NCBI RefSeq assembly: GCF_003334255.1
Contig: NZ_QOWU01000032.1
Length of the DNA stretch: 57,148 nt
Strand: one strand, 5' to 3'
Source: Escherichia coli
GTDB lineage: Bacteria; Pseudomonadota; Gammaproteobacteria; Enterobacterales; Enterobacteriaceae
Position numbers and translations under genes: made by a program. The notes beneath the pieces were generated by a model. That model searched no databases. It was not told the DNA's origin and saw only the letters and a program-made list of their open reading frames with translations. This document shows, in pieces, positions 2,987 through 40,947 of this stretch; within the stretch, counting starts at the first letter, position 1; every line of letters starts with the position of its first letter.

Positions 2987-3002
2987 AGTTTAGGGAGATT
3001 TG

Positions 3003-4037
3003 ATGGCTTACTCTGTTCAAAAGTCGCGCCTGGCAAAGGTTGCGGGTGTTTCGCTTGTTTTATTACTCGCTGCCTGTAGTTCTGACTCACGCTATAAGCG
3101 TCAGGTCAGTGGTGATGAAGCCTACCTGGAAGCGGCACCGCTTGCGGAGCTTCATGCCCCGGCTGGAATGATTTTGCCGGTGACCTCCGGTGATTATGCA
3201 ATCCCGGTGACCAACGGTAGTGGTGCTGTCGGTAAGGCGCTGGACATTCGTCCACCAGCCCAGCCGCTGGCACTGGTTTCTGGCGCGCGTACCCAGTTCA
3301 CGGGCGATACCGCTTCATTGCTGGTGGAAAATGGTCGTGGCAATACTCTGTGGCCGCAGGTGGTTAGCGTGCTGCAGGCGAAAAACTACACCATCACCCA
3401 ACGTGATGATGCTGGTCAGACACTGACCACCGATTGGGTACAATGGAACCGTCTGGACGAAGACGAGCAGTATCGTGGTCGTTATCAAATCTCTGTTAAG
3501 CCGCAGGGTTATCAGCAGGCGGTTACGGTTAAACTGCTGAACCTGGAACAGGCGGGCAAACCGGTTGCAGACGCGGCTTCCATGCAGCGTTACAGCACGG
3601 AGATGATGAACGTTATTTCCGCCGGTCTGGATAAATCTGCCACTGACGCCGCGAACGCTGCGCAAAATCGTGCCTCCACCACTATGGACGTACAAAGTGC
3701 AGCTGATGACACCGGTTTACCAATGCTGGTCGTACGCGGGCCGTTCAATGTGGTTTGGCAACGTCTGCCAGCGGCGCTGGAAAAAGTGGGCATGAAAGTG
3801 ACCGACAGCACCCGTTCGCAGGGCAACATGGCCGTAACTTATAAGCCGCTGTCTGACAGCGACTGGCAGGAACTGGGCGCGAGCGATCCAGGCCTGGCAT
3901 CCGGTGACTATAAACTGCAGGTTGGCGATTTAGATAACCGCAGCAGCCTACAGTTCATCGATCCGAAAGGTCATACTCTGACTCAGAGTCAGAACGACGC
4001 GCTGGTAGCTGTCTTCCAGGCTGCGTTTAGCAAGTAA
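3003..4037 (+). CDS. bamC: Outer membrane protein assembly factor BamC (lipoprotein NlpB)
   Basis: Translation [27 protein letters not shown]... has a lipoprotein signal peptide with a lipobox Cys; matches BamC. Lies 14 nt after dapA, consistent with a dapA-bamC operon. Confidence 0.9.
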
Positions 4038-4043
4038 AAATAC

Positions 4044-4070
4044 AGGGCTGGAATCATCCGGCCCTTTTTT
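4044..4070 (+). terminator. Rho-independent terminator after bamC
   Basis: GC-rich stem GGGCTGG/CCGGCCC (one G-U pair) with a 6-nt loop, followed by TTTTTT. Confidence 0.5.
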
Positions 4071-4080
4071 CTGATATGAT

Positions 4081-4096
4081 ACGCAAACGTGTGCGT
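4081..4096. promoter_or_regulatory. PurR operator (PUR box) in the purC leader
   Basis: ACGCAAACGTGTGCGT matches the PurR consensus ACGCAAACGTTTGCGT at 15 of 16 positions; it lies about 155 nt upstream of the purC ATG. Confidence 0.6.
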
Positions 4097-4142
4097 CTGC
4101 AGGAAAACGCGATTTTAGCGGTAATTCGCACGAAATTTGTTT

Positions 4143-4192
<50 letters not shown>

Positions 4193-4249
4193 GGCACACC
4201 AGACAGCAAAAGATTTTAAAACGTTAATTCACACCCAGGAGTGATAAAG

Positions 4250-4963
4250 ATGCAAAAGCAAGCTGAGTTGTATCGTGGTAAAGCGAAAACCGTATACAGC
4301 ACGGAAAACCCGGACCTGTTGGTGCTCGAATTCCGCAATGATACGTCAGCAGGGGATGGCGCGCGCATTGAGCAGTTTGATCGCAAAGGTATGGTGAACA
4401 ACAAGTTCAACTACTTCATTATGAGCAAACTGGCTGAAGCGGGTATCCCGACTCAAATGGAGCGTCTGCTCTCCGATACCGAATGTCTGGTGAAAAAGCT
4501 GGATATGGTGCCGGTTGAGTGTGTCGTGCGTAACCGTGCTGCTGGCTCTCTGGTGAAACGTCTTGGAATCGAAGAAGGTATTGAGCTGAACCCGCCGCTG
4601 TTCGATCTGTTCCTGAAAAACGACGCCATGCACGATCCGATGGTCAACGAATCTTACTGCGAAACCTTTGGCTGGGTGAGCAAAGAGAACCTGGCGCGTA
4701 TGAAAGAGCTGACCTACAAAGCGAACGACGTGCTGAAAAAACTGTTCGATGATGCTGGTCTGATTCTGGTCGACTTCAAGCTGGAATTTGGTCTGTACAA
4801 AGGCGAAGTGGTACTGGGTGATGAGTTCTCCCCGGACGGTAGCCGCCTGTGGGACAAAGAAACGCTGGAGAAAATGGACAAAGACCGTTTCCGCCAGAGC
4901 CTCGGTGGCCTGATCGAAGCCTATGAAGCCGTCGCCCGCCGCCTGGGTGTACAGCTGGACTGA
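4250..4963 (+). CDS. purC: Phosphoribosylaminoimidazole-succinocarboxamide (SAICAR) synthase
   Basis: 237-aa translation [37 protein letters not shown]... matches PurC; GGAG RBS upstream of the ATG at 4250. Confidence 0.95.
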
Positions 4964-5130
4964 TTTTTCTGTTCATCATCTTGCCGTGCAGCTGGCACGG
5001 CAAGACAACCGCTCTCGGAATATATGCATTGAACGCTCATTCCTCCGCCATTTCATCCCGCTTTCCTGTGGTAATCTTCCTCTGAACCACCTACGATCAT
5101 TTCTATAATGAATATATTGTTGAGGTATCT

Positions 5131-5994
5131 ATGCGTTGGCAAGGGCGACGTGAAAGTGACAATGTTGAAGACAGGCGCAACAGCTCTGGTGGTCCATCTA
5201 TGGGCGGTCCCGGTTTTCGCCTGCCAAGCGGTAAAGGCGGGCTGATTTTACTGATAGTCGTGCTGGTTGCAGGCTACTATGGTGTTGATTTAACCGGGTT
5301 GATGACCGGGCAGCCGGTTTCCCAACAACAATCAACGCGGTCAATTAGCCCAAATGAAGACGAAGCCGCAAAATTCACCTCGGTGATTCTGGCAACCACG
5401 GAAGACACCTGGGGACAACAGTTCGAGAAGATGGGTAAGACCTATCAGCAACCGAAGCTGGTCATGTACCGTGGAATGACGCGTACCGGCTGCGGGGCGG
5501 GCCAGTCCATAATGGGGCCGTTCTATTGCCCGGCGGATGGCACGGTTTATATCGATCTCTCCTTCTATGATGACATGAAAGACAAACTTGGCGCGGATGG
5601 CGATTTTGCCCAGGGGTACGTTATCGCCCATGAAGTCGGTCATCATGTGCAGAAACTGTTAGGCATCGAGCCGAAAGTTCGTCAACTGCAACAAAACGCG
5701 ACGCAGGCGGAAGTAAACCGCTTATCTGTGCGTATGGAACTCCAGGCCGACTGTTTTGCCGGTGTCTGGGGGCATAGTATGCAGCAGCAAGGCGTTCTGG
5801 AAACCGGCGATCTGGAAGAGGCGCTGAACGCGGCGCAGGCCATCGGCGATGACCGTTTACAACAGCAAAGTCAGGGGCGAGTAGTACCAGACAGTTTCAC
5901 TCATGGCACTTCTCAGCAACGCTACAGCTGGTTTAAACGTGGTTTCGACAGCGGCGATCCGGCACAATGCAATACTTTTGGTAAAAGCATTTAA
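5131..5994 (+). CDS. ypfJ: Putative neutral zinc metallopeptidase (YpfJ family)
   Basis: 287-aa translation with an N-terminal transmembrane segment and an HExxH motif (IAHEVGHH); matches YpfJ from memory. Confidence 0.85.
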
Positions 5995-6008: not shown

Positions 6009-8024
6009 ATGGCTGAACTGACTGCGCTTCACACATTAACAGCGCAAATGAAACGTGAAGGGATCCGCCGCTTGCTGGTGTTGAGCGGGGAAGAGGGTTG
6101 GTGTTTTGAGCATACTCTTAAGTTGCGTGATGCCTTACCTGGCGACTGGCTGTGGATTTCGCCGCGGCCAGATGCTGAAAACCACTGTTCTCCCTCGGCA
6201 CTACAAACTTTACTTGGGCGCGAGTTCCGGCATGCGGTATTCGACGCCCGCCACGGCTTTGATGCCGCTGCCTTTGCCGCACTTAGCGGAACGTTGAAAG
6301 CGGGAAGCTGGCTGGTTTTGTTACTCCCTGTATGGGAAGAGTGGGAAAACCAACCTGATGCCGACTCGCTGCGCTGGAGTGATTGCCCTGACCCTATTGC
6401 GACGCCGCATTTTGTCCAGCATCTCAAACGCGTACTTACGGCGGATAACGAGGCTATCCTCTGGCGGCAAAACCAGCCATTCTCGTTGGCGCATTTTACT
6501 CCCCGTACTGACTGGTACCCCGCGACTGGCGCACCACAACCAGAACAACAGCAACTCTTAAAGCAGCTAATGACCATGCCGCCGGGCGTGGCAGCGGTAA
6601 CGGCTGCGCGTGGGCGCGGTAAGTCGGCGTTGGCAGGGCAACTCATTTCTCGTATTGCGGGCAGAGCGATTGTCACCGCGCCCGCAAAAGCGTCAACGGA
6701 TGTACTGGCACAATTTGCGGGCGAGAAGTTTCGCTTTATTGCGCCGGATGCCTTGTTAGCCAGCGATGAGCAAGCCGACTGGCTGGTGGTCGATGAAGCC
6801 GCAGCCATACCTGCGCCATTGTTGCATCAACTGGTATCGCGTTTTCCTCGAACGTTGTTAACCACTACGGTGCAGGGCTACGAAGGCACCGGACGTGGTT
6901 TTTTGCTGAAATTTTGCGCTCGCTTTCCGCATTTACACCGTTTTGAACTGCAACAGCCGATCCGCTGGGCGCAGGGATGCCCGCTGGAAAAAATGGTCAG
7001 CGAGGCACTGGTTTTTGACGATGAAAACTTCACCCATACACCACAAGGCAATATTGTCATTTCCGCATTTGAACAGACGTTATGGCAAAGCGATCCAGAA
7101 ACGCCGTTAAAGGTTTATCAGCTCTTGTCTGGTGCGCACTATCGGACTTCGCCGCTGGATTTACGCCGGATGATGGATGCACCAGGGCAACATTTTTTAC
7201 AGGCGGCTGGCGAAAACGAGATTGCCGGGGCGCTGTGGCTGGTGGATGAGGGTGGATTATCTCAACAACTCAGTCAGGCGGTATGGGCAGGTTTTCGTCG
7301 CCCGCGGGGTAATCTGGTGGCCCAGTCGCTGGCGGCGCACGGCAACAATCCACTGGCGGCGACATTGCGTGGACGGCGGGTCAGCCGGATAGCAGTTCAT
7401 CCGGCTCGTCAGCGGGAAGGCACAGGGCGGCAACTTATTGCTGGTGCTTTGCAATATACGCAAGACCTCGACTATCTTTCGGTGAGTTTTGGTTACACCG
7501 GGGAGTTATGGCGTTTCTGGCAACGCTGCGGTTTTGTGCTGGTGCGGATGGGTAATCATCGGGAAGCCAGCAGCGGTTGCTATACGGCGATGGCGCTGTT
7601 ACCGATGAGTGATGCGGGTAAACAGCTGGCTGAACGTGAGCATTACCGTTTACGTCGCGATGCGCAAGCTCTCGCGCAGTGGAATGGCGAAACGCTTCCT
7701 GTTGATCCACTAAACGATGCCGTCCTTTCTGACGACGACTGGCTTGAACTGGCCGGTTTTGCTTTCGCTCATCGTCCGCTATTAACGTCGTTAGGTTGCT
7801 TATTGCGTCTGTTACAAACCAGTGAACTGGCATTACCGGCGCTGCGTGGGCGTTTACAGAAAAACGCCAGTGATGCGCAGTTATGTACCACACTTAAACT
7901 TTCAGGCCGCAAGATGTTACTGGTCCGTCAGCGGGAAGAGGCCGCGCAGGCGCTGTTCGCACTTAATGATGTTCGCACTGAGCGTCTGCGCGATCGCATA
8001 ACGCAATGGCAATTATTTCACTGA
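6009..8024 (+). CDS. tmcA: tRNA(Met) cytidine acetyltransferase TmcA
   Basis: 671-aa translation with a Walker A-like motif (AARGRGKSALAG) and a C-terminal GNAT-like region; matches TmcA (YpfI). Confidence 0.9.
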   Translation: MAELTALHTLTAQMKREGIRRLLVLSGEEGWCFEHTLKLRDALPGDWLWISPRPDAENHCSPSALQTLLGREFRHAVFDARHGFDAAAFAALSGTLKAGSWLVLLLPVWEEWENQPDADSLRWSDCPDPIATPHFVQHLKRVLTADNEAILWRQNQPFSLAHFTPRTDWYPATGAPQPEQQQLLKQLMTMPPGVAAVTAARGRGKSALAGQLISRIAGRAIVTAPAKASTDVLAQFAGEKFRFIAPDALLASDEQADWLVVDEAAAIPAPLLHQLVSRFPRTLLTTTVQGYEGTGRGFLLKFCARFPHLHRFELQQPIRWAQGCPLEKMVSEALVFDDENFTHTPQGNIVISAFEQTLWQSDPETPLKVYQLLSGAHYRTSPLDLRRMMDAPGQHFLQAAGENEIAGALWLVDEGGLSQQLSQAVWAGFRRPRGNLVAQSLAAHGNNPLAATLRGRRVSRIAVHPARQREGTGRQLIAGALQYTQDLDYLSVSFGYTGELWRFWQRCGFVLVRMGNHREASSGCYTAMALLPMSDAGKQLAEREHYRLRRDAQALAQWNGETLPVDPLNDAVLSDDDWLELAGFAFAHRPLLTSLGCLLRLLQTSELALPALRGRLQKNASDAQLCTTLKLSGRKMLLVRQREEAAQALFALNDVRTERLRDRITQWQLFH

Positions 8025-25770: not shown

Positions 25771-26061
25771 TTTTTTTTAACTCTCACGCTTACCCTGAAT
25801 ATTCAGGGTAAGCAGTTTAGCTGCAATATATTAGTAAAGCTTATTACTGAGTTTGCGAATAATAAAAAAAGCAGTCTATATAATATCTCGATATTATTTT
25901 ATTTATATTCATGCGTTGCATATGAAAGTTTATGCACCACAGCGAATATCTCTCCATTCTTAGTGATCTACCTCACCTTTTAAACGCGCTTGCCGAATTT
26001 TGTTATTTACTCTGACGAAAAATTGTCACGATACACGAAAGTTTTTCACAGGCGGCGACTC

Positions 26062-39336: not shown

Positions 39337-39348
39337 CGGAGGTTGCCG

Positions 39349-39849
39349 ATGATCAATGCACTGGGATTGCTGGAAGTGGACGGCATGGTCGCCGCGATAG
39401 ATGCAGCGGATGCCATGCTCAAAGCAGCTAACGTTCGTCTGCTCAGTCACGAAGTGCTTGACCCTGGTCGCTTAACGCTGGTGGTGGAAGGCGATCTGGC
39501 GGCGTGTCGTGCGGCGCTGGACGCAGGTTGTGCTGCCGCGATGCGTACCGGGCGTGTCATCAGCCGCAAGGAGATCGGTCGGCCAGACGATGACACCCAG
39601 TGGCTGGTTACTGGCTTTAACCGCCAGCCGAAGCAACCCGTAAGGGAACCCGACGCGCCAGTTATCGTCGCGGAATCTGCTGACGAGTTGTTGGCGCTGT
39701 TAACATCAGTACGTCAGGGAATGACGGCAGGAGAAGTGGCTGCCCACTTTGGCTGGCCGCTGGAAAAAGCCAGAAATGCGCTCGAACAGCTCTTTTCTGC
39801 CGGGACGTTACGTAAACGCAGTAGTCGTTATCGTCTCAAGCCCCATTAA
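39349..39849 (+). CDS. eutK: Microcompartment shell protein EutK (BMC domain with C-terminal nucleic-acid-binding-like extension)
   Basis: 166-aa translation MINALGLLEVDGMVAAIDAADAMLKAANVRLLSHEVLDPGRLTLVVEGDLAACRAA...; ORF-track start at 39343 is 2 codons earlier. Confidence 0.9.
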   Translation: MINALGLLEVDGMVAAIDAADAMLKAANVRLLSHEVLDPGRLTLVVEGDLAACRAALDAGCAAAMRTGRVISRKEIGRPDDDTQWLVTGFNRQPKQPVREPDAPVIVAESADELLALLTSVRQGMTAGEVAAHFGWPLEKARNALEQLFSAGTLRKRSSRYRLKPH

Positions 39850-39894
39850 CCTGTCGGAGGTGCCGGGTGTCCTACAACACCCGGCATTAACATC

Positions 39895-40947
39895 ATGAAA
39901 AAGACCCGTACAGCCAATTTGCACCATCTTTATCATGAACCCTTACCCGAAAACCTGAAGCTCACGCCGAAGGTCGAAGTGGATAATGTTCATCAACGAC
40001 AGACAACGGATGTCTATGAACATGCTTTAACGATTACCGCCTGGCAGCAGATTTACGATCAGCTGCATCCGGGCAAGTTTCATGGTGAATTTACGGAAAT
40101 TCTACTCGATGATATTCAGGTTTTTCGTGAATACACCGGTCTGGCGCTGCGTCAGTCGTGCCTGGTCTGGCCGAACTCGTTCTGGTTTGGCATTCCGGCG
40201 ACGCGCGGTGAGCAGGGATTTATCGGTTCGCAATGTCTGGGAAGCGCGGAAATCGCCACCCGCCCTGGTGGCACTGAATTTGAACTGAGCACGCCGGATG
40301 ATTACACGATCCTGGGCGTGGTGCTTTCTGAAGATGTCATCACCCGGCAGGCTAACTTTTTGCATAACCCGGATCGGGTATTACATATGTTGCGTAACCA
40401 GTCGGCGCTGGAAGTGAAAGAGCAGCATAAAGCCGCGCTGTGGGGCTTTGTCCAACAGGCGCTGGCGACGTTTTGCGAGAATCCGGAAAATCTCCATCAG
40501 CCTGCAGTGCGAAAAGTGCTGGGGGATAATTTGCTAATGGCGATGGGGGCCATGCTGGAAGAAGCGCAACCAATGGTGACGGCGGAAAGCATCAGTCATC
40601 AGAGTTACCGTCGATTGCTTTCCCGCGCCCGTGAATATGTGCTGGAAAACATGTCCGAACCGGTGACGGTGCTGGATTTGTGTAATCAACTGCATGTCAG
40701 CCGCCGCACGCTACAAAACGCGTTTCACGCTATTTTAGGCATTGGCCCGAACGCGTGGCTGAAACGCATTCGCCTGAACGCCGTACGCCGCGAACTGATA
40801 AGTCCGTGGTCGCAAAGTATGACGGTAAAAGACGCCGCCATGCAGTGGGGATTCTGGCATCTGGGGCAATTTGCCACGGATTACCAGCAGCTGTTTTCCG
40901 AGAAGCCGTCACTGACGCTGCATCAGCGGATGCGGGAGTGGGGGTGA
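39895..40947 (+). CDS. eutR: AraC-family transcriptional activator of the eut operon, EutR
   Basis: 350-aa translation with a C-terminal AraC-type HTH (...[40 protein letters not shown]...); last gene of the operon. Confidence 0.92.

Follow-up and report, generated by a model that had tools for sequence, protein, structure and literature searches.

A stem-loop with a U-poor tail at the 3' end of the purC transcript of Escherichia coli

The purC locus and its hairpin

The sequence analyzed was a stretch of 57,148 nt from Escherichia coli (RefSeq assembly GCF_003334255.1, contig NZ_QOWU01000032.1), hereafter the window; positions are counted from its first nucleotide, and bamC, purC, ypfJ and tmcA lie on the + strand. 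The 300 nt spanning the hairpin under study are identical to K-12 MG1655, and window positions (p) were converted to K-12 coordinates as 2596905 - (p - 4963), on the minus strand. The window is not identical to MG1655 throughout: a 1-nt indel was found near position 25867, and between 5000 and 11150 the two sequences drift out of register by about 10 nt. The source strain, although K-12-like at purC, is therefore possibly not MG1655.

The bamC gene (3000-4037) is followed by an intrinsic terminator (4044-4065, with the 3' end reaching to 4071), and this by the PurR operator of purC (4082-4097), in which the PUR box ACGCAAACGTGTGCGT has one mismatch to the consensus ACGCAAACGTTTGCGT. Expression of purC is repressed in LB. 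The purC gene, coding for SAICAR synthase, was assigned from its open reading frame (4250-4963) and from the way RefSeq annotates K-12, where the sequence is identical; it ends with a TGA codon at 4961-4963. The published transcription start site (TSS) of purC (K-12 2597781, window 4087; Yan et al., 2018) falls inside the PUR box. Counted from this start, the purC leader is 163 nt long and holds a REP element at 4153-4197, whose match to naRNA4 is sub-threshold, with 30.9 bits where the gathering score is 59.5. Downstream of purC lie ypfJ (5131-5994), which codes for a zinc metallopeptidase and is reached by read-through from purC, and tmcA (6009-8024).

The purC stop codon is separated from the hairpin by a short spacer (4964-4978; TTTTTCTGTTCATCA) that opens with a T5 run (4964-4968). 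The hairpin, CTTGCCGTGC-AGCTG-GCACGGCAAG, has a perfect 10-bp stem and a 5-nt loop (4980-5004), and its first nucleotide is the 17th past the stop codon. Both the stem and its distance from purC had been described in the original prediction and are borne out by the sequence; with the flanking T-A pair counted, the repeat finder extended the stem to 11 bp, with arms at 4979-4989 and 4995-5005 that are 100% complementary and lie 5 nt apart. As RNA, the stem-loop covers 4979-5005 (11 bp when the outer U-A pair is counted, with the loop AGCUG at 4990-4994). The folding energy of the isolated hairpin is -19.5 kcal/mol, and its 91-nt context folds with a z-score of -2.67 relative to shuffled sequences.

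The pattern has a single occurrence in the window, and of 5426 complete E. coli genomes 3806 carry it at exactly one place each. Perfect hairpins in general (stem of at least 10 bp, loop of 3-8 nt) were more numerous in the 57-kb window than expected by chance, with four distinct cases against 0.49 +/- 0.82 in 100 dinucleotide shuffles. Another of them, TGCCGGGTGT-cctaca-ACACCCGGCA (39861-39886), has a perfect 10-bp stem, fills most of the 45-nt gap between two open reading frames on the same strand (39343-39849 and 39895-40947) and looks like an intercistronic stem-loop within an operon. A palindrome of the A5-stem-T5 type (AAAAAGGCGACACATTGGCATGTCGCCTTTTT, 11122-11153) has the look of a bidirectional intrinsic terminator; a dominant Term-seq 3' end, classed as antisense to acrD, has been mapped in this sequence (K-12 2590726; Adams et al., 2021).

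The purC stem, with 11 bp and a 5-nt loop, is of the kind found in intrinsic terminators (GC-rich, about 5-14 bp, short loop). The 3' tail of the hairpin (CAACCGCTCT) has a single U in its first 8 nt (CAACCGCU), and the tail on the minus strand begins AUGAUGAA; a U-tract is thus absent on either strand, and there is no A-tract upstream of the stem. On neither strand was the purC hairpin called by the scan for terminators and promoters, which did call the bamC terminator (4044-4065, followed by T6). The earlier view that the T-rich run precedes the hairpin instead of following it, and that a canonical intrinsic terminator is present on neither strand, is therefore confirmed.

A covariance-model search of Rfam 15 at E <= 10 gave no match overlapping 4979-5005, and the sole Rfam signal nearby was the weak naRNA4/REP match upstream of the hairpin. 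Membership in the REP/BIME elements or in another repeat family was rejected, as the hairpin is present in one copy only, both in the window and in each of the 3806 genomes, and has no Rfam match; the description of the hairpin as not REP-like accordingly held. A sigma-54 site was also discarded, since by eye neither strand fits the consensus TGGCACG-N4-TTGC.

Two segments with distinct composition follow the hairpin. An A/U-rich spacer (5009-5036), hypervariable in the alignment of Escherichia sequences, is a candidate entry site for an endonuclease. A C-rich, G-poor tract (5021-5120), with a GC skew down to -0.46 and about 2.7-fold more C than G, falls in the top 0.3% when 80-nt windows across the 57 kb are ranked; it is untranslated, between the purC stop (4963) and the ATG of ypfJ (5131), and is a candidate Rho-utilization site. 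Two start sites of ypfJ have been mapped here (K-12 2596784 and 2596763, window 5084 and 5105; Yan et al., 2018). A motif conserved across genera, TGGTAATC...CCTACGATCA, is found upstream of ypfJ (5069-5105), and within it a -35 element TGGTAA (5069-5074), a 17-nt spacing and a -10 element TACGAT (5092-5097) fit a promoter for the start at 5105. The tract and the conserved promoter region of ypfJ overlap, and the promoter alone may account for the C-rich composition.

The mapped 3' end of purC

A published supplementary table already contains the 3' end of the purC transcript, without comment. A SMRT-Cappable-seq study of cells grown in M9 (Yan et al., 2018; PMC6131387; Supplementary Data 1, M9_TTS) lists a transcript of purC only, 2596861-2597781 in reverse orientation, which covers b2476 and no other gene. 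The same row gives 88 reads at the TSS, of which 58 end at the transcription termination site (TTS) and 19 pass through; 8 reads end within 50 bp downstream, the median read-through is 1077 nt, and the site is labeled 'novelTTS'. K-12 2596861 corresponds to window 5007, and a range of 5006-5008 was adopted to cover 0- or 1-based numbering and the trimming of terminal A residues, which is part of the method (Yan et al., 2018); 5007 and 5008 are both A. The 3' end of the purC-only primary transcript thus lies 1-3 nt past the 11-bp stem, and the transcript ends anticipated at or just after 5004 by the original prediction are found there.

In minimal medium, the base of the hairpin marks the 3' end of about two thirds of the primary transcripts of purC. 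Others continue: operon variants recorded by Yan et al. (2018) are purC, purC-ypfJ, bamC-purC(-ypfJ), dapA-bamC-purC-ypfJ and ypfJ(-tmcA-ypfH). The method captures transcripts with a 5' triphosphate, and the ends alone do not separate termination from processing. For annotation, the purC transcription unit gains a defined 3' boundary at K-12 ~2596861, with some 20-30% of transcripts reading on into ypfJ (19/88, or ~22%, by the read counts).

Intrinsic termination in E. coli releases the RNA from a U-rich RNA:DNA hybrid, about 7-9 nt past the stem. The ends so formed lie within the U-tract, several nucleotides past the stem; that of purC lies 1-3 nt past it. An end this close to the stem, with a U-tract lacking, is not the product expected of canonical intrinsic termination. 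The bamC intrinsic terminator was used as a control, and its 3' end (K-12 2597797-2597799, window 4069-4071; Yan et al., 2018; Adams et al., 2021) was located inside the U-tract, 4-6 nt past the end of the stem at 4065. Since the control ends further out and in a U-tract, the purC end is too near the stem for canonical release.

The curated lists of dominant Term-seq ends for LB at OD 0.4, LB at OD 2.0 and M63 at OD 0.4 (1175, 882 and 1053 ends, respectively; Adams et al., 2021) do not contain the purC end, and do include that of the bamC terminator. Neither purC nor ypfJ is named in four supplementary files of the same study, whose main text gives Supplementary file 2 as the one with the regions of Rho termination. 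No entry for purC was found in the TERMITe supplements, and a literature search returned no paper pairing purC with ypfJ and none usefully pairing purC with bicyclomycin.

Variation of the hairpin and of its surroundings

Eighty purC loci were fetched from other species, and the closest 41, together with the window, were examined. A strong hairpin follows purC in 42 of 42 Enterobacterales loci (-12.6 to -35.5 kcal/mol), and starts 8-30 nt past the purC stop in 40 of them. When the same 90-nt stretches were subjected to dinucleotide shuffling, only 23% reached -12.6 kcal/mol and 9% reached -15 kcal/mol. The hairpin sequences are unrelated between genera (for example CTTGCCGTGC in Escherichia, TGAGCCGG in Citrobacter, GCCAAAGGATG in Enterobacter, CAGAGGGTGC in Pseudocitrobacter and CCGGCATCG in Kluyvera). 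Their tails form a continuum, from 8 U in 8 nt (Klebsiella sp. BIGb0407, Brenneria) through 6 in 8 (Shimwellia, Serratia oryzae and a metagenome-assembled genome, MAG) to 1 in 8 (E. coli, E. albertii, Kluyvera); in Cedecea and Siccibacter the U-runs lie partly inside the reported fold.

The hairpins of Enterobacter, Leclercia, Pseudocitrobacter and Pluralibacter can be aligned, and compensatory changes were found in 6 of their 11 pairs. Paired cells make up 88% of this alignment and 78% of shuffled ones (0 of 500 shuffles reached 88%), and pairing collapsed to 40-52% when the alignment was slid out of register. Within Escherichia, the stem arms are invariant in six sequences (K-12, Nissle, O157:H7, two other strains and E. 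albertii), and the only changes are A to T and G to A in the loop and a switch of the loop-closing pair to G.U; substitutions cluster in the 20 nt 3' of the hairpin. As pairing and position are kept across genera while the sequence turns over, the comparison of sequences indicates a constraint on pairing and position, and so a function as RNA structure rather than as a protein-binding DNA site.

The position of the PUR box was scanned in 64 loci, allowing up to 3 mismatches, and proved bimodal. The box lies upstream of purC, as in E. coli (window 4082-4097), in 41 loci, and 16 have none within 300 nt upstream, nor within 1 kb at the same stringency. Fifteen of these 16 carry a conserved ACGCAATCGTTTACGT-like PUR box 2 nt past the purC stop, ahead of the terminator hairpin; the sixteenth, from Rahnella inusitata, has it 25 nt past the stop. 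No locus of the 64 has both an upstream and a downstream box at 3 mismatches or fewer. Shimwellia has an upstream box and a weaker box-like motif past the purC stop, a similar downstream box was seen by eye in a few more loci, and a search past the end of purC in E. coli gave no residual box. A PurR operator at the 3' end could act as a roadblock giving rise to stop-less transcripts.

The hairpin lies on a 65-bp intergenic segment (4972-5036) that is dimorphic within E. coli. The flanks were matched in 5426 of 5426 genomes and the hairpin was present in 3806-3807; in 1615 (~30%), an unrelated 824-bp vapBC cassette, a vapB-vapC toxin-antitoxin pair with a tRNA-fMet endonuclease, replaces the segment at exactly the same junctions. 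The two alleles cover 5421 of the 5426 genomes, and E. albertii has the hairpin allele. No direct repeats were found at the junctions. The possibility that the hairpin segment is a deletion scar of the cassette was rejected, there being no homology between the two inserts (the best local score was trivial). Plasmid-borne vapBC genes are only ~77% identical to the cassette. The vapBC allele opens with a perfect 11-bp hairpin of its own, TTTAGCCGGAG-GGTA-CTCCGGCTAAA, 20 nt past the purC stop, in keeping with a lasting need for a stem-loop at the 3' end of purC.

Formation of the purC 3' end and its relation to known systems

That Rho-dependent transcripts carry protective 3' stem-loops is a hypothesis reportedly advanced by Peters and colleagues in 2012. 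Rho-dependent transcripts of E. coli were later found to have precise steady-state 3' ends directly after stable stem-loops, with a low U content, no upstream A-tract and more C than G downstream; these ends are extended in pnp and rnb mutants, the trimming being carried out by PNPase and RNase II (Dar and Sorek, 2018; NAR 46:6797). The purC hairpin is an ordinary feature of this already described class of U-less 3' stem-loops and, by analogy, most probably a member of the protective stem-loops found on Rho-terminated transcripts.

We consider it probable that the hairpin is the 3'-terminal protective stem-loop of the purC mRNA, with termination taking place downstream, most likely by Rho, and exonucleases then trimming the RNA back to the stem. 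RNA polymerase would transcribe past the hairpin, and most transcripts would be ended further on, in the untranslated C-rich spacer between purC and ypfJ. Rho, as the most likely agent, would load at about 5021-5120, where the RNA is rich in C and poor in G, after ribosomes leave at the purC stop codon. The 3'-to-5' exonucleases PNPase and RNase II would trim the tail until blocked by the stable 11-bp stem, which would leave the precise end 1-3 nt past the stem and protect the purC message; a minority of the transcripts, about one fifth, would go on into ypfJ and tmcA. What we infer for purC from these features is that Rho terminates the transcripts, that exonucleases trim them and that the mRNA is stabilized. 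The suggestions of the original prediction that the hairpin blocks exonucleases and marks a Rho-dependent terminator thus find support in the sequence features and in the class description (Dar and Sorek, 2018), from which stabilization and Rho dependence at purC itself are extrapolated.

The hairpin might instead release the RNA by itself without a U-tract, perhaps aided by NusA or NusG, the end being then nibbled by a few nucleotides. Such a non-canonical intrinsic terminator would agree with about two thirds of the purC-initiated reads ending at a single position, and Yan et al. (2018) read their own TTSs, 95% of them with stem-loops, as genuine termination. A canonical hairpin with a U-tract also occupies this position in other genera (Klebsiella sp. 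BIGb0407, Brenneria, Shimwellia, Serratia oryzae and the MAG), and weak intrinsic and Rho-dependent termination can coexist as transition states (Dar and Sorek, 2018). We nevertheless regard this explanation as unlikely, with one U in the eight nucleotides of a tail where, by textbook accounts, release 7-9 nt past the stem requires a U-rich hybrid, an end merely 1-3 nt past the stem and no A-tract upstream. Unlikely as well is an origin of the end by processing only, in which long read-through into ypfJ-tmcA is cut by an endonuclease (for example RNase E) in 5009-5036 or beyond and trimmed to the hairpin cap, with no termination nearby. Long purC-ypfJ and dapA-bamC-purC-ypfJ transcripts are known, an A/U-rich single-stranded stretch (GGAAUAUAUGCAUUGAA) lies directly 3' of the hairpin, and Yan et al. 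(2018) grant that some of their ends may stem from processing. The reads that end at the hairpin keep their 5' triphosphate, however, which disfavors 5'-end-dependent RNase E (an argument of Yan et al., 2018), and with 19 of 88 reads extending beyond the hairpin the long precursor would need to be short-lived.

A role at the level of DNA appears very unlikely. The hairpin could be a palindromic operator through which a dimeric regulator controls ypfJ, whose promoter lies 80-100 bp downstream; it could also be a cruciform, or a site of recombination, tied to the vapBC dimorphism. Its 11-bp inverted repeat is indeed perfect and precedes the ypfJ starts at 5084 and 5105, and the 65-bp segment around it is the one for which the cassette substitutes. 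The sequence of the hairpin is not conserved outside Escherichia, however, whereas hairpin potential is universal at this position and covaries in the sister clade; relative to the junctions, which have no direct repeats, the hairpin is set 7 nt in from the left one and ~30 nt away from the right one, and it is single-copy and does not match the sigma-54 consensus by eye. Cleavage by RNase III in the purC 3' untranslated region, also put forward in the original prediction, would account for a 3' end adjoining a perfect duplex, and is the reading to which we give least credence. The stem of 10-11 bp is about half the length of a typical substrate (two helical turns or so, by textbook accounts; duplexes of ~20 bp or more), and the enzyme would cut within the stem whereas the mapped end lies outside it; only 7 TTSs overlap RNase III sites in the data of Yan et al. 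(2018), in which 347 TTSs were defined in M9.

A more ambitious proposal is that the hairpin acts as a U-tract-independent switch between termination and read-through that sets the coupling of ypfJ-tmcA-ypfH to the purine-regulated purC, the hairpin/vapBC dimorphism reflecting selection to keep the switch when the spacer is exchanged. We hold this to be quite improbable. As a protective stem-loop, the purC hairpin adds one more documented case of an E. coli mRNA that, lacking an intrinsic terminator, still ends at such a structure, a case that carries little weight alone. Terminators may change mode merely by a change in U content (Dar and Sorek, 2018), and the series of purC hairpins illustrates this idea of a drift between a Rho-independent and a Rho-dependent mode of termination through U content alone.

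Canonical intrinsic terminators, such as that of bamC (4044-4071) and those of purC in Cedecea, Brenneria and Shimwellia, resemble the purC hairpin of E. coli in stem length, loop size, energy and position relative to the purC stop, and in ending most transcripts. The E. coli hairpin differs from them in its lack of a U-tract (1/8), in an end that lies 1-3 nt and not 5-9 nt past the stem, and in a read-through of ~22%. REP/BIME 3' stabilizers, represented at this locus by the REP element at 4153-4197, are likewise extragenic palindromes able to block 3' exonucleases; unlike them, the purC hairpin is single-copy, is unrelated to the REP consensus and has no Rfam or naRNA match.

Within the window, a hairpin of similar architecture follows maeB. 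It has a perfect 11-bp stem (GCTTACCCTGA-atat-TCAGGGTAAGC, 25788-25813) that starts 18 nt past the maeB stop, with T8 before the stem and a U-poor tail (AGTTTAGC), and a 'novelTTS' of maeB maps 4-5 nt past the stem (K-12 2576050, window 25818; Yan et al., 2018). The sequences of the two hairpins differ, and maeB has no recorded read-through reads.

The closest likeness is to the class of Dar and Sorek (2018). The purC hairpin shares with it a stable stem-loop just past the stop codon and a precise 3' end right after the stem, an end found in one dataset (Yan et al., 2018) and missing from the curated lists of Adams et al. (2021). Also shared are a tail low in uridine, the absence of an A-tract before the stem, a non-REP sequence and a rut-like excess of C over G downstream, which at purC is confounded with the ypfJ promoter located in the same tract. 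It departs from the class in that we infer, for purC, both Rho dependence and trimming by PNPase and RNase II, and in that the segment carrying the hairpin is dimorphic within the species.
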